Assembly: GCA_033723415.1 (NCBI GenBank)
Contig: JAWVXD010000001.1
Span: 256,001 to 320,000, forward strand
Source of the DNA: Sulfurospirillaceae bacterium
GTDB lineage: Bacteria > Campylobacterota > Campylobacteria > Campylobacterales > Sulfurospirillaceae
DNA length: 64,000 nucleotides
Reading direction: 5' to 3'
A program made the translations under genes and the position numbers. Below the pieces are notes generated by a model. It made no database searches, had not been told where the DNA came from, and saw only the letters and a program-made list of their open reading frames with translations. Positions 48,296-56,419 of the stretch are shown piece by piece (within the stretch, counting starts at the first letter, position 1; each line of letters opens with the position of its first letter).

Positions 48296-48364
48296 AGATA
48301 ACGTTTAAAATGAGCCGATGAATTGCACGCAGGGCAATTTATTGGCTCCTCTGATTTGTTAACT
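48296..48364 (-). repeat. attC site (69 bp)
   Basis: AGTTAAC-AAATCAGAGGAGCCAATAAATTGC...GCAATTCATCGGCTCATTTTAAAC-GTTATCT; R'' overlaps AbiV stop. Confidence 0.9.
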
Positions 48365-49036
48365 TTTTGCATGATGTACTTTATTCCATTTTCTAGACTT
48401 CAAACTTGTTTTGTATGACCATGTAAAAAGTATTGGATAGTCATTTTCATTAATAATGCCATCCATTTCCCAAACACCCCAATATCCATCATTTTTTGTA
48501 ACCAAATCATGTACCTCAAGAAATTCATGATTTAAGAGAGAAATCATCTGTTTTGCATTTGCTAGTTTTATTTTTTTCGTAGGAATCGACACCCTACTTG
48601 AAGTGTCAATTTTTCTCTTTGAACGCTCAAGTCCCACATAAATTGCTTCTTGCTTTTGAATTTCTAGTTTTTTCTCTTCTACCTTAGATACGAATGCAGG
48701 AGCATAGTCAAATATTTCACTTGCAATAAATGCGAATTGCTTTTTCGGATGCAAATACAATAGTTTTAACCAGTTTTGTTCAAATGTTACATACTCCTCG
48801 TATTCTGCATCACCTTCTTTTGGGAACCCATTATTTGTAATTGTTGAATAGTAATAATGGTCTACCCATTTAGCTTTTGCAAATTCTTCTAAAGCCAATA
48901 CTGAAAGTTGAAAAGCTGATGGAAAAGATTCATTGTTGTAAAGTAGGATTGAATCTTCATGCAATCGTAATGCATTACGCAAGGATTCTTCTGCAATCTT
49001 TTTGAACTTGTATTGACTTAATCCCTTCAAATTCAT
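48359..49036 (-). CDS. AbiV-family (HEPN) abortive infection protein, cassette-borne
   Basis: NALRLHEDSILL....SAFQLSVLALEEFAK, H.KKQ, KQEAIYVG match AbiV pattern. Confidence 0.82.
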   Translation of the reverse strand: MNLKGLSQYKFKKIAEESLRNALRLHEDSILLYNNESFPSAFQLSVLALEEFAKAKWVDHYYYSTITNNGFPKEGDAEYEEYVTFEQNWLKLLYLHPKKQFAFIASEIFDYAPAFVSKVEEKKLEIQKQEAIYVGLERSKRKIDTSSRVSIPTKKIKLANAKQMISLLNHEFLEVHDLVTKNDGYWGVWEMDGIINENDYPILFTWSYKTSLKSRKWNKVHHAKS

Positions 49037-49052: not shown

Positions 49053-49122
49053 AGTTAACGGTTGTCGTGAACAATAATTCTCCCGCTAGGGTAAATTATT
49101 GGTCTCCTCGTACTTGTTATAA
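49053..49122 (-). repeat. attC site (70 bp)
   Basis: TTATAAC-AAGTACGAGGAGACCAATAATT..CCC-TAGC-GGG..AATTATTGTTCACGACAACC-GTTAACT. Confidence 0.9.
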
Positions 49123-49677
49123 ACCTTTTAATTTATAAGCATAGTGACTATTTTTAAAAGTTTCATTTACTAAGCCTTTTCTTGGTGATGTTTCAATGTC
49201 TTTGGACTCTATATCAATGTTTTTAAATTTAATTTTTTCATTAGTTTCTACCATAGCTAAAAAATCTTCTTTTGAAGATGGTTTTAATATATCTATTAAT
49301 TCATCAATAAATTTTGATTGTGAAAATTTCTTATTGCTTTCAATACAAATTACTTCTTTTATTAAAATGCCACCAAAACTTGTTCCATTGCCAAAAGTAA
49401 AATCTAAACCTTTATGCTTATAGTTTGGATTTATGCTAATTTTATGAAGGTACCATACTGCATTCAGTAATTGCCTGTTTTTTGCACGTTTGTATTTTAA
49501 AGCATGACTGTTTTCATCTTGATGATTAGTATTATTATAATAGTAAAACTCAATATTTGAGATTCTATATTTTTTCGAATTTACTAATAAAATATGTTCA
49601 TTCAAAATTTCATTTGCAATTCTGTAGAAATCTTGTTCAATTGTTTTTATACTTGTATCATTTATTGTTAAGTCCAA
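49117..49677 (-). CDS. Hypothetical cassette protein, AAG/MPG DNA-glycosylase-like
   Basis: YRISNIEFY, D.NSH, GGILIK, SPRKGL align by eye with AAG motifs RIVETEAY, D.ASH, VLIRA, PRIGI; TTG start after AAGGAA. Confidence 0.55.
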   Translation of the reverse strand: MDLTINDTSIKTIEQDFYRIANEILNEHILLVNSKKYRISNIEFYYYNNTNHQDENSHALKYKRAKNRQLLNAVWYLHKISINPNYKHKGLDFTFGNGTSFGGILIKEVICIESNKKFSQSKFIDELIDILKPSSKEDFLAMVETNEKIKFKNIDIESKDIETSPRKGLVNETFKNSHYAYKLKGL

Positions 49678-49692: not shown

Positions 49693-49776
49693 TTATAACG
49701 GGGGCGCGGGTGAGTGACTGCCGTTGGAAAATCTTTGGATTTTCCAACGGTTGATTGCTCCTCCCGCTTGTTATCT
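49693..49776 (-). repeat. attC site (84 bp) of gene-less cassette A
   Basis: AGATAAC...13-bp perfect central stem CCGTTGGAAAATC/GATTTTCCAACGG...GTTATAA. Confidence 0.88.
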
Positions 49777-49851
49777 GGTGCGAAGCTCCGGATGACTAGC
49801 GGGTGTTCAACCTGCGCCCCCGTTATCTCGGATGCGTAGCGTCCAAGATAA
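49699..49851 (-). other. Gene-less, highly structured integron cassette, copy A (153 bp)
   Basis: Starts GTTATCT, own R'' AGATAAC; no credible ORF; GC-rich nested inverted repeats; paralogous to 53510-53652. Confidence 0.85.
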
Positions 49852-49917
49852 CGTTTAAAATGAGCAATCAAAAAGCCGCTTGCGGGTTTTTGATTGGAGT
49901 GCAAGGTTTTGTTATGC
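49846..49917 (-). repeat. attC site (72 bp)
   Basis: GCATAAC...CAATCAAAAA.CCGC-AA-GCGG.TTTTTGATTG...GTTATCT; 20 bp at R' end identical to 48296-48315. Confidence 0.9.
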
Positions 49918-50679
49918 TTTTTTATTAAATAACAACTCAGTTTTTTTGGGGTCATAGCCACTACACTGGACACAATGTAAACAAAACAGAGGCGATTCAC
50001 CATATGTAAACTTGTTGAACTCAAAATCATTTTTCAAAGATTCTAGAATCAATTCTTTCGAATATGGAATCTTTGTTATTCTTGTATATACCATTTCTGG
50101 ATCTTTAACAACATCAAATGTGACTAAATCAATCTCATGAACTATTTTGGTTGCAACAACATTGTTATATTTTTCATTTTCTATATGGTCACATTCTTCA
50201 AAATTGCGTAAACATATGTTACATGTTCCATCAATACTGTTACAAGTAACTTCATTGTAGATATTGTTTGTGATATGCTCACATTCCAAAGGTTCTTTAC
50301 CACAGATTGAACATAAATATTTTTCAGTACCTCTCATACTGAAACCAAAATCATGATGTAAAAGTATATTTGGGCAGTCAGAGTAGTAGTTTTCACCATC
50401 AAATTTACATTGGCATTCATATTTTTCACATAATATTTCTCCAATTTTATGCATTTTTTTCGATATTTCTACTCTTTTGTCTCTATAAAACCAAAAACAA
50501 TTTAGATACTCTTTTAAAACGGATTGCAAATCTTTTTTAACATCATCACTTTTTTTGTTATTAATTTTTTCAATTAGGGCATTTACCTTTATTGAGCTAT
50601 CTTGCGCGACTTTTGGTGGGCTGTCACTATTTATTATCATCATGATTGCTTCAAATGCTGGCTGTTCTGATTTATGCAT
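49912..50679 (-). CDS. Cys/His-rich hypothetical protein, tandem CxxC-x6-CxH modules; possible prohead-protease-like domain
   Basis: CSICGKEPLECEH...Y and CNICLRNFEECDH...Y, C-terminal CLHCVQC; second gene of a two-gene cassette. Confidence 0.6.
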   Translation of the reverse strand: MHKSEQPAFEAIMMIINSDSPPKVAQDSSIKVNALIEKINNKKSDDVKKDLQSVLKEYLNCFWFYRDKRVEISKKMHKIGEILCEKYECQCKFDGENYYSDCPNILLHHDFGFSMRGTEKYLCSICGKEPLECEHITNNIYNEVTCNSIDGTCNICLRNFEECDHIENEKYNNVVATKIVHEIDLVTFDVVKDPEMVYTRITKIPYSKELILESLKNDFEFNKFTYGESPLFCLHCVQCSGYDPKKTELLFNKKA

Positions 50680-51113
50680 TAGAAATCTTTTAGTGAGTCA
50701 AGTATAGTTTTAATCTCATTTTTATCACCTTCAATTTCTATTTCCACATATTTCCCATCTTTCTTTTTTTTTGTAAATCTTAATTTAATTATTGATTGAG
50801 TGTCAAAATTGTTTTTTATCCAATCATAAATAAAGCTCGACAATATTGAAAATGGAATACCAATGATTAAAGGTAAGATGACAGTTGCGTCTCTTAGAGA
50901 TAAATATTCATAACTTTCTCTCTTTACAACTATATTATTGACTTGATTTTGTTTTAGAACTTTATGTATATCAGGTGTGTACTCGTTGAGAATATCACTG
51001 CTTTCTGAGTATCCTTCTGGCATGATAAAAATTCCATTTTCTGTAAACTGAATATTTCTTTTCTTTAAAGTTTCAGCCACTTCATTAATATCAATGGTTA
51101 TTTCTTTAATCAT
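50679..51113 (-). CDS. Hypothetical protein with one hydrophobic helix
   Basis: RBS AAGGAG/AAGGA, VILPLIIGIPFSILSSFIYDW segment; TAATG coupling to downstream gene. Confidence 0.75.
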   Translation of the reverse strand: MIKEITIDINEVAETLKKRNIQFTENGIFIMPEGYSESSDILNEYTPDIHKVLKQNQVNNIVVKRESYEYLSLRDATVILPLIIGIPFSILSSFIYDWIKNNFDTQSIIKLRFTKKKKDGKYVEIEIEGDKNEIKTILDSLKDF

Positions 51114-51140
51114 TTCCTTGCTCCTTTATTTCAACTCTTA

Positions 51141-51197
51141 GCATAACGGTTGACTTCACCAACAGGATTACCTGTTTGGTGCTAGGATTTGTTAGCT
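51141..51197 (-). repeat. attC site (57 bp)
   Basis: AGCTAAC-AAATCCTAG-CACCAAACAGG-TAAT-CCTGTTGGTG-AAGTCAACC-GTTATGC. Confidence 0.9.
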
Positions 51198-51198
51198 T

Positions 51199-53481
51199 TT
51201 ATCTTTCAAAAAGATCGTCAATATCATTTGAAAGTAATTGACGTTCTCTATATCTATCTTCATCATAACCATCACCTTGACTTGAAAAATATGAATTAAT
51301 TAGACTGTCTATGTCAATGGAATCAACAATATCATCCGAATTAATATTTATTGTATCGGTGTCAAATTCTATAACCAAATCATCAATGAAGTCATGCAAA
51401 ACATCTTTAATTGATGATTCATCTATATCAAAATCATAGTAATCAAGTGGACTTCTTGTAATGTACGCTGAAATATCTATTTCTGAATGGGCGAAGTCAG
51501 ACAATGCATCTATTAAAGCATCTTGAAGACTATTTTCAAAGTCTGTTATGAATGTCTTATCTGTTAAATTCAAATTGTTAAATATTTCTATTATAAGTGG
51601 AAGATCATCAATTTCATCAATTGAAGTACTGTTTAGTAGTTCTTTTAAATCTATTTGATAATTAAATTCTTTTGTTGCATATACTAATAGTTTTAGCAGA
51701 TCAGTGAAATATATCCCATTATTTGAAACTATATCTATAGTATTTAAAAATGCTTTTATTTTATTATCAAATTCAACTTTATGATCTATATATTTGTCTC
51801 TTATAATTAGCAATGACATACTAAGGAAATATTCATTTTTATTGTCCTTAATATCATATTCCTGAAACAAATAACTAAGGATTTCTTGATAAGTTTGTTT
51901 ATCTATAAAATTATTTTTTTCTAAACTAATTAAATTTGAAATTGATGATTTTGTTTGAAGAGATAAATAAATAAGTTTCAAAAGTTCAATATCTCCTTTA
52001 TATCTATTCATTATGAAATCTGCCAATGATGGATTGAAAAGAGTGTAATTTATGTTACTAGGAGATTGCATATTTCTATTGACAAAGTATTTCACTGTAG
52101 TCTTTATTACATTATTGAACTGATTGTTGATATTGCTTGTAGAAGTGGCTTTTGTGATTTTATTGAGATAGTTATACGATTCATTTAATAACTTCTCGTC
52201 AATACTATTGTTATTAAAAACAATAAGCAAAATTATATTTCTGATAAAATCATCACTTTGACAATCAAATGTATGACTCCAGACCTCTGATGGATTACTT
52301 AAAATACTTAACACATAATTCCAAAAGTTTGACGGCTCTATATCTTCAAAGTTGTTTTTGTTTGTAATGAATGCAATAAGTCTTGGATTGAAGTTTTTAT
52401 GCTTAATAATTTGCATATATCTTCTGTTTTCGTAGATCACATCAATAAAAGATTCAGGTAAAGAACTAAACCAAATATGGTTATATAGTATTTCAGCTTT
52501 ATTAAAATCTGTAAGTCCATCAATTGTCAGGACAAACTCATTTTGATGAATATTTTTATTTTTAAAAATACTACTAATCATATATGCTTGATTGATTATG
52601 TTTGTTCTACTAGTTAAAATAAATTTTTTAGTGCTATCTTTTTTTACTCTGCTAATAAATTGCATAATACTAGAATCATGTTTATGCTCAATGGCATTTA
52701 AAAAGTTACTTCCTAAAAAATCATCAAAGTAAAATACTTGTTTTGTATCTTTGGAGTAAATATTTTCTACTTCTTCTATATCTTTATTAATTAGATAGAA
52801 CTTGTAACCTTGGCTTGAATAAAAGTAACATAAATTTTCTGTTAAAGTGGTTTTTCCTATCCCAGGCTCACCTGTAATTATTAATGCATTAGATTCTTTT
52901 AATATCTCAAGCGCATTTTTATGATTACTAGTATTTACATATAGATGTAGCTTTTCATTTATATCTTCTAGATAACTTTCACTTCTTCCTTCAATAGCAT
53001 TATTTAGTAATCTCATTAATACATTTGTACTACTCAACCATAATTTATAATGATTTTTTTCAATATCAGGAAACTTTTTTAATAAATCATTTAAGTCTTC
53101 CTGTCCATAAATATCATTGTCATTTTTGATAAATGGAGTAAATAGATTTTTAATAGTTTTTTTATTCTCAGAAGATAATGGTAATGAGGTAATAAAATAA
53201 TAGTTTTTTGGTTTTAATAGCTTGACCTTTTCAACTTCATTAATACCTTTATTATTTTTCCTTTTTAGAGATGATATTAATCCTTGAAAACCTGTCTGTA
53301 AATAATGCTTGCACTGAATTATATCTTCTAACCCATTGTTATTGTAATATCGTCCATCTATCCCTCTGTCGCGCCCAGCCTTAAACCGTTCAAATCTTTT
53401 ATTTTTATCTGTTGAAAGTATGTCTATTGATAAGTTTTCAAACTCTTTATCATTTAAACTTGAAAATGTGTAATCAACCAA
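51199..53481 (-). CDS. Mrr-like restriction endonuclease fused to nSTAND3-type NTPase; candidate defence protein
   Basis: EFE.L..D.L, D.GIDG, IIQCKHY; GEPGIGKT, FYFDDFLG, ILTSR, NPRLI; acidic C-terminus. Confidence 0.82.
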   Translation of the reverse strand: MVDYTFSSLNDKEFENLSIDILSTDKNKRFERFKAGRDRGIDGRYYNNNGLEDIIQCKHYLQTGFQGLISSLKRKNNKGINEVEKVKLLKPKNYYFITSLPLSSENKKTIKNLFTPFIKNDNDIYGQEDLNDLLKKFPDIEKNHYKLWLSSTNVLMRLLNNAIEGRSESYLEDINEKLHLYVNTSNHKNALEILKESNALIITGEPGIGKTTLTENLCYFYSSQGYKFYLINKDIEEVENIYSKDTKQVFYFDDFLGSNFLNAIEHKHDSSIMQFISRVKKDSTKKFILTSRTNIINQAYMISSIFKNKNIHQNEFVLTIDGLTDFNKAEILYNHIWFSSLPESFIDVIYENRRYMQIIKHKNFNPRLIAFITNKNNFEDIEPSNFWNYVLSILSNPSEVWSHTFDCQSDDFIRNIILLIVFNNNSIDEKLLNESYNYLNKITKATSTSNINNQFNNVIKTTVKYFVNRNMQSPSNINYTLFNPSLADFIMNRYKGDIELLKLIYLSLQTKSSISNLISLEKNNFIDKQTYQEILSYLFQEYDIKDNKNEYFLSMSLLIIRDKYIDHKVEFDNKIKAFLNTIDIVSNNGIYFTDLLKLLVYATKEFNYQIDLKELLNSTSIDEIDDLPLIIEIFNNLNLTDKTFITDFENSLQDALIDALSDFAHSEIDISAYITRSPLDYYDFDIDESSIKDVLHDFIDDLVIEFDTDTININSDDIVDSIDIDSLINSYFSSQGDGYDEDRYRERQLLSNDIDDLFER

Positions 53482-53503: not shown

Positions 53504-53586
53504 AGCTAACGGGGGCACGGGGGAGTGACTACCATTGGTAAACCTTTAGGTTTTCAATGGCTGATTGCTCCTACCGCGTGTTATCT
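53504..53586 (-). repeat. attC site (83 bp) of gene-less cassette B
   Basis: AGATAAC...CCATTGAAAACC-TAAA-GGTTTACCAATGG...GTTAGCT; paralogue of 49693-49776 with compensatory changes. Confidence 0.88.
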
Positions 53587-53652
53587 GGTGCGAAGCTCCG
53601 GATGACTTGCGGGTGTTCAGCCAGCGCTCTAGTTATCTCGAATGCATAGCGT
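53510..53652 (-). other. Gene-less structured cassette, copy B (5'-truncated)
   Basis: Colinear with copy A (39/40 identity over 53580-53619 vs 49770-49809); similarity stops at 53652, before the leading R' box. Confidence 0.8.
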
Positions 53653-53674: not shown

Positions 53675-53884
53675 ATTAGATAATTCTTATATATAGTATA
53701 AACACAATTTTATGTAGTATTTAAACTACAATATAAAGTTTAGTATTACTTTTTAGCCTAGATAAACTATTGTTTTGTGATAAAAAGACATTGATTTTAA
53801 GAAATATTTTGCAATAAGATAACAAGTTACTTGATATTTACTCAAATATAATATCAATAAACAACTCCAAAGCTATGATAAAAA

Positions 53885-53973
53885 TTATAGTATAATTCAA
53901 TTAAAAAAGACTGGATACCTATACTTTTTCTGAAAAAATATCCTACATCTTATCATCCTGACTCCTATATTTA
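53885..53973 (+). pseudogene. Degenerate duplicate of the promoter and 5' end of the histidine kinase gene
   Basis: 24-bp and 27-bp exact matches to 54875-54898 and 54939-54965; ATG replaced by ATA. Confidence 0.8.
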
Positions 53974-54229: not shown

Positions 54230-54766
54230 ATGGTTAAAAAACTTTCTATAGTGGGCGTGTTGGTTTTATGTGTTGGTATGAGTGTATATGCTAAAGATTT
54301 TTATGTAAAAATCGGTGCCGGGATGGCAAATGTATCTGAGAAAAGTGCCTATAATTACAATGTAGATTTTAGTAATGCCAAGCTTTATACCGCAGCAATC
54401 GGCAAAAATTTTGGAAATTTTGCTGTTGAAGCGGAATATTCTCATGAAAGTTGTGATTGGAACAACAAAAGTCTCAATTTAAGTGGCAAAGGAACTACAA
54501 ATGGATATATGATAAATGGATATTATAACTTTCCTTTGAATTCAAAATTTGCTCCATATATAGGAGCAGGTATAGGGCATACTAACTTTACGGACGGTGG
54601 ATATACCTCAAGCGGTACTACAGCATATCAAGGGATTTTAGGAGTATCGTATCCAATAAATAACAACTTTAACCTAAATGCTGAATATAGATACAAATAT
54701 GCGAGTTATAAATCAGTTGATTTAACATCAAATAATCTTTTAGTTGGTTTAACTATAAAATTTTAA
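54230..54766 (+). CDS. Small 8-stranded outer-membrane beta-barrel protein
   Basis: Signal peptide, NGYY, PYIGAGIG, EYRY, terminal Phe. Confidence 0.9.
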   Translation: MVKKLSIVGVLVLCVGMSVYAKDFYVKIGAGMANVSEKSAYNYNVDFSNAKLYTAAIGKNFGNFAVEAEYSHESCDWNNKSLNLSGKGTTNGYMINGYYNFPLNSKFAPYIGAGIGHTNFTDGGYTSSGTTAYQGILGVSYPINNNFNLNAEYRYKYASYKSVDLTSNNLLVGLTIKF

Positions 54767-54838: not shown

Positions 54839-54910
54839 CACTTCTAGGACATGAAGAAAAATTAGACTCCAAATTTATAGTATAATTCAATTAAAAAATA
54901 TTGGATAAAT

Positions 54911-56419
54911 ATGCTATTTTCAGAGAAGAACATACCGAATCTTATCATCCTGACTCCTATATTTACGATCATCATACTTACGTCTCTCATCACATTTTTC
55001 TTTGTGGATTCTCAGTACAAGTACTTTAAAGAACAAAGCGTGACCTTGGAGAAAAACTATATACAAAAGCAAAGAACGCTACTTAAAAACGAAGTCAACC
55101 GTGTGATCAATTACATAGCTTTTCATAAAAAAAATCTAAAAAATTTAAGTGACAAAGAACTCAAAAAGACGATAGCTGCCTATATCGAGACTATTAGGTA
55201 CGGTGACAACGGCTATATCTGGGTACATGACACGAACTATTATCTCGTCGCGCATCCATTTAGGAAGGATATGATCGGTAAATACGACATCAACTTAAAG
55301 GATGAATCTGGTGCATTTATAACCAGAGCGTTTATCAATATAGCCATCAGCAAGCCTGAAGGCGGTTTTTTGGAGTATTATTGGAAGAAGCCGAGCAACG
55401 GCAAGGTTGAAAAGAAGCTTGGATTCTTGAAGCTTTACGCACCATGGAAATGGGTCATCGGAAGTGGTTTGTACATGGATGACATCTCACACTCTATCAA
55501 GATCGAGAAAAAGCACCTGGAAGAGAAGATCAACAAACAGATCCAGGTCATCATGCTCATAGCTTTTACGTTTATGTTCCTAGTCGGTATGATCTCATTT
55601 GTGATCTCTAGAAATATCATCAATGCTCTTAATTCTTACAAAGAAAAAGTCAGAGACAATGAACTCACACTAAAGACAAAGATCGCAGAGGCGATTAGCG
55701 AATCGCAAAAAAAAGATCAAGCGCTATTGTACCAGTCCAGACTCGCTCAAATGGGAGAGATGATCAGTATGATCGCACACCAGTGGAAACAGCCTCTCAG
55801 TGAAGTGAGCGGGATCTTCATGGAACTGGAGACTATAGGCAAATTTGACGAACTTGATAAAAATTATGTCTTGGAATGTGCAAAAGACGGAGATAAGATC
55901 ACAGAGTACATGAGCAGGACGATAGAAGACTTTAGGAATTTTTTTAAACCTGACAAGAAGAGGGAGAGATTTGATATACAAACTGCATTAGATGAGACCT
56001 TAACACTGGTTGATGCTTCGATTAAAAATTCACATATCCAAATAATTTCCGATATTTCTGAGCACATTTATATAGAAGGATACCCAAATGAATATTCCCA
56101 AGTCATCTTAAATATATTGATGAATGCCAGAGATGCACTGATATCGAGAAATATAGCAAACCCGGAGATTCATATAAAAGTGTATCAGAAAAAGGATCAA
56201 GCGATCTTAGAGATCATTGACAATGCAGGAGGGATAGACGAAGAGATACTAGATAAGATCTTTGATCCATACTTCAGCACCAAAGACAATGTAAACGGTA
56301 CAGGTTTGGGACTGTACATGTCTAAAATGATCATAGAAAAAAGCATGAACGGAAGATTGAGCGTACAAAACACCGATAGCGGTGCAAGTTTTAAAATAGA
56401 AGTAAAGATATGCAACTAG
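54911..56419 (+). CDS. Cache-domain sensor histidine kinase
   Basis: Two TMs, single Cache domain (RYG.NGY.W, Y.W.KP, W.IGSG.Y), HQWKQPL, DNAGGI, GTGLGL. Confidence 0.94.
   Translation: MLFSEKNIPNLIILTPIFTIIILTSLITFFFVDSQYKYFKEQSVTLEKNYIQKQRTLLKNEVNRVINYIAFHKKNLKNLSDKELKKTIAAYIETIRYGDNGYIWVHDTNYYLVAHPFRKDMIGKYDINLKDESGAFITRAFINIAISKPEGGFLEYYWKKPSNGKVEKKLGFLKLYAPWKWVIGSGLYMDDISHSIKIEKKHLEEKINKQIQVIMLIAFTFMFLVGMISFVISRNIINALNSYKEKVRDNELTLKTKIAEAISESQKKDQALLYQSRLAQMGEMISMIAHQWKQPLSEVSGIFMELETIGKFDELDKNYVLECAKDGDKITEYMSRTIEDFRNFFKPDKKRERFDIQTALDETLTLVDASIKNSHIQIISDISEHIYIEGYPNEYSQVILNILMNARDALISRNIANPEIHIKVYQKKDQAILEIIDNAGGIDEEILDKIFDPYFSTKDNVNGTGLGLYMSKMIIEKSMNGRLSVQNTDSGASFKIEVKICN

Follow-up and report, generated by a model that had tools for sequence, protein, structure and literature searches.

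A two-gene cassette joining a relative of phage prohead proteases to a small hydrophobic-helix protein as a possible anti-phage module

We describe a two-gene cassette in a 64,000-nucleotide stretch of a Sulfurospirillaceae genome (the window), whose 255-aa product is, as judged from profile comparison, homologous to the C-terminal half of the S78 prohead proteases, and whose 144-aa product accompanies it across several bacterial phyla. The pair is a real, widespread and apparently undescribed two-part module. We tentatively propose that it serves anti-phage abortive infection, in which the host Ser114 would cut the partner after a phage trigger and free a membrane toxin, a reading to which we give a probability of about 0.4. 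Its cut site, membrane toxicity, trigger and defence role are the parts that we infer. The features concerned are as follows (window positions).

49912..50679, minus strand: gene of the 255-aa prohead-protease-derived protein, from its ORF and homology
50679..51113, minus strand: gene of the 144-aa partner with an EACC1-like layout, from its ORF
49846..49917, minus strand: attC-like site closing the two-gene cassette and including the stop codon of the 255-aa gene
51141..51197, minus strand: attC-like site of the upstream cassette, the GTT core of which is the start of the two-gene cassette
51199..53481, minus strand: context, cassette for a 760-aa restriction-nuclease-like/nSTAND3 protein matching PADLOC PDC-S73 over its full length
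48359..49036, minus strand: context, HEPN AbiV abortive-infection cassette
49694..49850, minus strand: context, non-coding, strongly paired repeat directly downstream of the two-gene cassette

An array of minus-strand genes occupies 47.6 to 53.7 kb of the window, and a TAAC...GTT hairpin follows most of these genes; the four hairpins checked gave z-scores of -2.8 to -4.9 against base shuffles. Judged by eye, the surrounding housekeeping genes resemble those of Campylobacterota. The two-gene cassette spans about 49852-51146, between the STAND gene PDC-S73 and the AbiV gene, and the attC-like hairpins that flank it gave z -2.8 (51141-51197) and z -4.9 (49846-49917). Its two ORFs, both on the minus strand, overlap by one base via TAATG, and no attC-like site was found between them. 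As expected of an integron cassette, the unit has a TAAC...GTT attC hairpin after its genes and different neighbours elsewhere. The attC-like sites are also present in a second array of genome G000 (17 contigs, 100% complete by markers), in which the integron integrase model TIGR02249 stayed below the cut-off, and we therefore regard the array as integrase-less (CALIN-like). In metagenome run X2, a 1285-base contig with 35 differences spans 49906-51148, and hardly any depth falls on the upstream STAND gene; the pieces in run X5 have their ends at 51143 and 49906, adjoining other attC-like sequence. The same left and right ends of the unit thus occur in two other metagenome studies (P2 and P3, runs X2 and X5), a count that leaves out run X1 as the possible source sample. 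The coupling, the flanking hairpins and this recurrence bear out the first-pass annotation, which had described two translationally coupled genes in one cassette that move as a unit.

Several further elements were noted in the array and around it. A non-coding repeat of ~130-170 bases lies between cassettes at 49694-49850 and 53507-53652 of the window and folds at -48.5 kcal/mol (z -10.6); there are two copies in the window, four in the second array and one partial (G000:C1 4675-7709 and 84018-84076), and the candidate identities for it are an empty cassette, an RNA and a REP-like element. The second array of G000 occupies C1 455-7700, with scattered attC-like sites at C1 ~84 kb, C9 ~64.4 kb and C11 ~72.9 kb, and includes a 219-aa ORF (C1:455-1114) that we take to resemble REP-associated tyrosine transposases. 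A 186-aa cassette protein of the window (49117-49677, minus strand) gave no family match and has a diverged copy in run X2; its motifs presumably resemble those of 3-methyladenine glycosylase-like proteins. An upstream region of ~90 bases is duplicated (53881-53973 and 54871-54965) and flanks an outer-membrane beta-barrel gene (54230-54766).

The relationship of the 255-aa protein to the C-terminal half of HK97-type prohead proteases carrying a zinc knuckle had been proposed from its motifs, and all of these (GFSM..YLCSICG..CEH..Y, CNIC..CDH..Y and IVHEIDLVTFDVVKDP) are in the translation where they had been placed. The proposal was supported by profile comparison, in which the family aligned with three viral proteases from Ser114 to T202 (hhalign 96.7%, E 3.3e-10). 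The three viral proteins came from a pattern scan of viral contigs and their knuckle match is built into the pattern; the E-x-S-x-V-x-x-P strand downstream of the knuckle, common to the viral proteases, was not part of it. All three pass the Pfam S78 (PF04586) cut-off, each of their genes adjoins capsid-like genes with terminase- or portal-like genes nearby, and one of the two scanned matches phrog_16951 over residues 43-201. Among the 135 aligned members of the 255-aa family, 85 match phrog_16951 and 7 match phrog_80 (head maturation protease). Ser114 lies in a strand of the G/x-x-S-x-G type and aligns to the viral Ser. S78 prohead proteases with the same zinc knuckle and a scaffold-like tail are encoded on viral contigs L127-L129, and these are candidate models for the ancestral donor as well as candidate triggers.

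The alignment ends toward the N-terminus at about residue 113, and the His-bearing half is absent. In the viral relatives a His precedes the Ser by 53 residues, and the triad order for T4-type enzymes is given as His-Ser-Asp in the accessible text of PMC5694885. No catalytic His was found well upstream of Ser114 in the 255-aa protein, where the model has a three-helix bundle, in agreement with the earlier description of the N-terminus as helical and unrelated to prohead proteases. Since helices stand in place of the N-terminal half and its catalytic His, the protein is not an S78 member; the window protein has no PF04586 match, and two of 46 relatives reach E 0.006-0.007, below the cut-off. 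The protein thus shares with Peptidase_S78 (PF04586; HK97/herpes assemblin-type clan) the S-x-G nucleophile strand, the CSICG..C.H knuckle and the E-x-S-x-V-x-x-P strand, whereas it differs in the three helices replacing the His-bearing half, the second knuckle, the C-terminal Cys cluster, the missing scaffold tail and its location in bacterial accessory DNA rather than in head modules. No head genes were present among 130 neighbour proteins from 18 family loci, and the window gene sits in a cassette array. Viral contigs, INPHARED phages and PLSDB plasmids yielded no family members, the single match showing no family ORF. Searches of Pfam, PADLOC, PHROGs and NCBIfam gave no real match for either gene of the pair, and PDB sequence searches nothing relevant. 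Fold searches with no match at E<=0.001 in PDB or BFVD bear neither for nor against the fold: the whole model retrieved generic helical bundles alone (best Z 6.8), and the core model gave a best E of 0.044, a prohead-protease-named row at E 0.83 and TM 0.28, and a best VIA Z of 2.4.

A six-sequence profile of the 255-aa family retrieved 335 representatives at E<=0.001, the best 150 of the 335 being listed, and the family alignment holds 135 sequences, with short pieces and three long cysteine-repeat proteins left out. S114, C123, C126, C133 and H135 are invariant in 135/135, and P194 is conserved in 132/132; with 335 representatives and Ser114 in every aligned sequence, conservation is therefore far beyond chance. 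In the model (pLDDT 95), three helices (21-87) precede the Ser114 strand (112-123) and the long strands 178-191, which runs into V-x-x-P194, and 201-206, with small zinc knuckles formed by C123/C126/C133/H135 and C153/C156/C163/H165. The other conserved residues C89, C102, C233, C236, C239, H77 and H108 probably provide further zinc sites. H108 is kept in 120/135 relatives, and C239 is missing as well from each of the 14 full-length relatives without H108 (106/12/0/14 of 132), a sequence pattern by which H108 is more likely a zinc ligand. We also considered H108 as the catalytic His, with an internal deletion, given its P-x4-H spacing as in the viral proteases, and rejected this for the same joint loss with C239. 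At the third triad position, 187, 73 of 132 sequences have E and 38 have H; the window protein has T187 with D189. When the catalytic residues were checked as the first-pass annotation had proposed, the Ser was found and the His was not.

Ser is also kept in all eight sequences of a variant subfamily, which lacks H108 and has one knuckle and an H-x-x-x-V-x-x-P strand. This subfamily (L005 = G212, L166 = G1209, P0168-P0178) combines the same partner with a 248-aa protein that has a longer helical N-terminus, an N-S-x-G motif and, in the third position of the triad, an invariant His. The CNIC..CxH knuckle was also observed as tandem repeats in the long proteins P0100, P0135 and P0160, which carry PT-TG, RES or M23 domains and look like polymorphic toxins.

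The 144-aa partner has 12 close homologues. It consists of an N-terminal alpha/beta part, a docking helix (41-55), a strand (69-75), a hydrophobic helix (77-95), a beta hairpin and a C-terminal helix. The stretch 77-95 is its one hydrophobic stretch (mean Kyte-Doolittle 2.18), followed by a basic beta-rich segment, just as had been stated from the sequence.

The two genes are closely associated. In 26 relatives of 386-467 aa, the partner profile matches the N-terminus (hhalign 98.1%, E 8.3e-14) and the protease-like domain forms the C-terminal end, so the two genes also occur fused; such one-chain fusions come from at least two separate branches of the tree. A genome pattern scan for the 255-aa protein gave at least 120 matches, and the 80 with flanks comprised 62 true members and 18 chance matches. 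Among the 62 genome loci listed, the partner is fused or directly upstream in 59, namely directly upstream on the same strand in 53 (two of which look like frameshifted fusions) and fused in six. Of the remaining three, one lies at a contig end, one is on a contig of 200 bases and one is disrupted by a transposase gene, and an intact protein of the family was never seen without its partner at these 62 loci. With all three metagenome loci also carrying the partner, the expected co-occurrence of the two genes was borne out. Variations on this arrangement were observed as well. In L025, L041 and L070 two different protease-like genes stand in tandem behind a single partner gene, an arrangement that hints at dimers or two triggers per effector. 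In L057:3964-6354 (minus strand) a single ORF combines the protease-like domain with a KAP-like P-loop NTPase, and a KAP NTPase gene adjoins the pair in L022:7380-9362; these NTPases are possible added sensors. Broken copies include L084, which has lost its 5' end beside a transposase gene, and the frameshifted L168 and L080.

The 335 clusters at 50% identity belong to Actinomycetota, Bacillota, Acidobacteriota, Pseudomonadota and others, and the closest genome-locus relative among the matches listed is in a Lachnospiraceae genome. Among 401 genomes of the window's phylum, each profile matches the same two (with the G212 partner in the second profile). In another phylum, one of 351 genomes was found via the partner profile, with a variant protease-like gene directly downstream. 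The partner profile gave two weak matches in 401 genomes from the phylum of G466, in ORFs of ~495 aa with no protease-like gene in the loci retrieved, and these are taken as chance or another context.

Modelling of the pair as a complex, which the first-pass annotation had suggested, gave a score of 0.77 against a best of 0.00 for three controls. The mark for this score is reached by 116/157 solved and 2/215 mismatched pairs, and holds roughly here, where our own alignments were used. The runs agree in at least 88% of contacts, with a partner pLDDT of at least 86. Fused-gene halves may score through likeness to solved structures; no solved relative was found in this case. The prediction supports binding of the 144-aa partner by the 255-aa protein, with residues 114-121, 130-138, 178, 182-184 and 195 facing partner residues 41-55, 62, 69-75 and 101-102. 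In the model, partner strand 69-75 runs beside the Ser114 strand and immediately precedes the conserved hydrophobic helix, and the best-scoring contacts are those of partner residues 69-70 with 119-121, so that the predicted complex looks like a protease with its substrate.

In herpes proteases the substrate runs antiparallel to the Ser strand. If the same orientation applies here, R74 would be P1 and the cut would fall at 74/75; a cut at 73/74 is possible instead. Position 75 is S/G/D/A in 83/89 partners and position 76 is A in 58/89. A hydrophobic window of at least 1.6 follows the presumed cut in 58/89 partners, as compared with 20/23 for EACC1, and precedes it in 0/89. Covariation across 81 natural pairs places five of the top 25 inter-gene position pairs in the interface, with 0.4 expected and at most two in 100 shuffled pairings; the count is inflated by kinship and was 4/25 after thinning to 50. 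We rejected charge pairing of partner positions 73/74 with residue 195 as a sign of co-evolution, as E73/R195 represents one clade of 34 rows and hence one event. The partner strands fall into Lys/Arg and Glu classes. Among phage proteases, that of HK97 cuts after Lys and that of T4 after Glu.

The layout of the pair resembles that of the EACC1-caspase protease-effector defence module outlined in the accessible text of PMC7159879. There, according to the available part of PMC12642450, a phage-triggered protease cuts the small protein once and the toxic 7.1-kDa C-terminal piece forms membrane pores. In both systems a protease-type gene has on its 5' side a small gene whose product carries a single hydrophobic helix flanked by alpha/beta parts, and the cut, as predicted here, lies just before the helix, giving pieces of 8.7 and 8.1 kDa versus 5.7 and 7.1 kDa for EACC1. 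The pair differs from EACC1-caspase in that its protease is of the prohead type and not a caspase (no caspase match was found for the window protein or 46 relatives), its genes are often fused, and there is as a rule no STAND or other sensor domain. EACC1 is the nearest named family to the partner in the ESM Atlas (0.82), which serves as a lead only. None of 41 partners matches PF19953 (EACC1) at E<=0.05, and there was no match for that of the window. Comparison of the partner with 23 EACC1 domains gave hhalign probabilities of 3-11%, limited to the C-terminal hairpin and helix; the score of 21 exceeds those of 30 shuffles (at most 12.5) and a reversed control, and common ancestry with EACC1 is weakly suggested by these sequence comparisons. 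The partner is thus built like EACC1 without demonstrated membership, and the module belongs to neither S78 nor EACC1. Further forms of the module may be represented in the ESM Atlas by two clusters, one of 268 aa from Bacteroidota whose fold is partner-like (TM 0.52) and one of 142 aa; Peptidase_S78 is present on 13% and 12% of their members, respectively.

The neighbours of the family (130 proteins from 18 loci) include integrases, a relaxase, an OLD-nuclease/UvrD pair, a KAP NTPase, CHAT, HEPN, RES-Xre and PIN proteins, and many ordinary genes. The anticipated enrichment in defence islands did not emerge clearly from raw PADLOC counts, with matches at 11/20 family loci (138 of 160 ORFs submitted) versus 7/17 chance loci (124 of 142 ORFs submitted). 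The matches at family loci include Cas3, Lamassu B/C, PDC-S53/S54/S65/S07, SoFic and type IIG restriction, and those at chance loci are mostly partial matches to housekeeping-like helicases and enzymes. Enrichment of defence genes near the homologues is suggested by near full-length matches to dedicated defence models, a criterion picked afterwards (7/20 versus 2/17). Anti-phage cassettes in sedentary integrons have been reported (bioRxiv 10.1101/2024.07.02.601686); in its accessible text these resemble the present unit as small cassettes in attC arrays, some with membrane proteins, whereas the terms protease, prohead, peptidase and zinc are absent from that main text and the pair is not described.

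The proposed abortive-infection module could work as follows. It would have been built from a captured phage prohead protease, of which the Ser strand and the next strand were retained, and the zinc sites and helical bundle may hold the 255-aa protein in shape. Partner strand 69-75 would be bound along the Ser114 strand like a substrate, and the complex, having no general base, would stay latent. The trigger, made by the phage and most plausibly a protein of late head assembly, would complete or switch on the active site, upon which Ser114 would cut near R74/D75 and free an 8-kDa C-terminal piece starting with the hydrophobic helix. This piece may then enter the membrane, oligomerise and stop the infected cell. 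In one form of this scheme, a split-enzyme sensor that we consider quite improbable, the host Ser half is preloaded with the pro-toxin, and the phage protease or another head protein supplies the catalytic His.

Cutting by the host Ser is favoured by: i) retention of Ser114 in 135/135 family members and 8/8 of the divergent variant subfamily; ii) the S78 homology, the pairing or fusion in 59/62 and 3/3 loci and the predicted complex; iii) the interface covariation, the small residue after the cut and the helix following it; and iv) the match of gene order and layout to EACC1-caspase and the position of the cassette between PDC-S73 and AbiV. Against it stand the missing catalytic His, with H108 resembling a zinc ligand and T at the third triad position of the window protein; the weak similarity to EACC1 (3-11%; 0/41 in Pfam) and the raw PADLOC counts (11/20 vs 7/17); the kinship that inflates covariation, with E73/R195 confined to one clade; and the fused forms, in which the freed piece would remain linked to the protease half.

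The other explanations can be weighed on three points: that Ser is invariant speaks against a dead enzyme, that His is absent against a self-sufficient one, and that fusions exist against simple release. The 255-aa protein might be a pseudo-protease that binds the cut strand of the partner and shields it as long as the cell is uninfected, until a phage prohead protease displaces this guard or cuts the partner itself and so frees the membrane toxin. The absence of a catalytic His from the host protein fits this idea, as does the resemblance of the Lys/Arg and Glu classes of the partner strand to phage protease specificities. It also has a precedent in CBASS, where, according to the accessible text of PMC12991175, phage prohead proteases trigger defence by cutting a host loop; prohead-protease activity is likewise linked there to abortive defence, whereas what is cut in the host is a nucleotide cyclase and no protein derived from a protease takes part on the host side. 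A dead enzyme would not, however, be expected to retain Ser in 135/135 and 8/8 divergent sequences, and we consider this explanation rather unlikely. The pair could instead act without proteolysis, as a toxin-antitoxin or chaperone pair in which the zinc protein sequesters the partner and releases it intact upon competition by a phage protein or its own decay. Toxin-antitoxin cassettes are common in integron arrays, and the translational coupling and the tight predicted complex, which involves partner helix 41-55 and the first zinc knuckle, would suit such a role. One-chain fusions in at least two parts of the tree, however, cannot free an intact toxin by dissociation, and the invariant Ser and the small residue after the presumed cut would go unexplained, which makes this reading unlikely.

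The first-pass annotation had also raised direct sabotage of head assembly, in which the half protease would enter proheads or bind the scaffold or protease and spoil head maturation, with the partner as a membrane anchor. The head-protease origin is compatible with this, but in the model the partner already occupies the strand to which a phage substrate would bind, and no intact copy of the protein lacking its partner was seen at the 62 loci. Given this substrate-like position at the Ser strand, a protease-gated toxin fits better, and sabotage appears highly improbable. A role outside defence, such as a proteolytic switch responding to stress or metals or a cassette-maintenance module, would agree with raw counts of defence neighbours that are not clearly enriched and with the many neighbours that are ordinary or mobile-element genes. 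It is at odds with the patchy distribution across phyla (2/401 genomes in the window's phylum, with the closest listed relative in Lachnospiraceae), the defence-rich cassette array and the phage ancestry, and is very doubtful.

The literature searched contained no description of a prohead-protease-derived defence pair, in keeping with the earlier view of the two-component system as undescribed, and supplementary tables of prediction studies could hold unnamed candidates. Such a pair is absent from the accessible texts of PMC7159879, 10.1101/2025.01.08.631966, 10.1101/2024.07.02.601686 and PMC10052503, and the terms prohead, assemblin and S78 from that of PMC12642450, according to which the protease in the known protease-effector defence modules is a caspase, trypsin or subtilisin. 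If cutting by the host Ser is true, the clan of phage head-maturation proteases would join the proteases of defence modules, taken from the enemy and reduced to half a fold, in which Ser is invariant and no general base is visible. If, in addition, the phage supplies the missing His, infection itself would assemble the enzyme that kills the cell. More generally, the finding bears on the means by which bacteria detect the late assembly of phages and on the question whether a pathogen can complete an enzyme.
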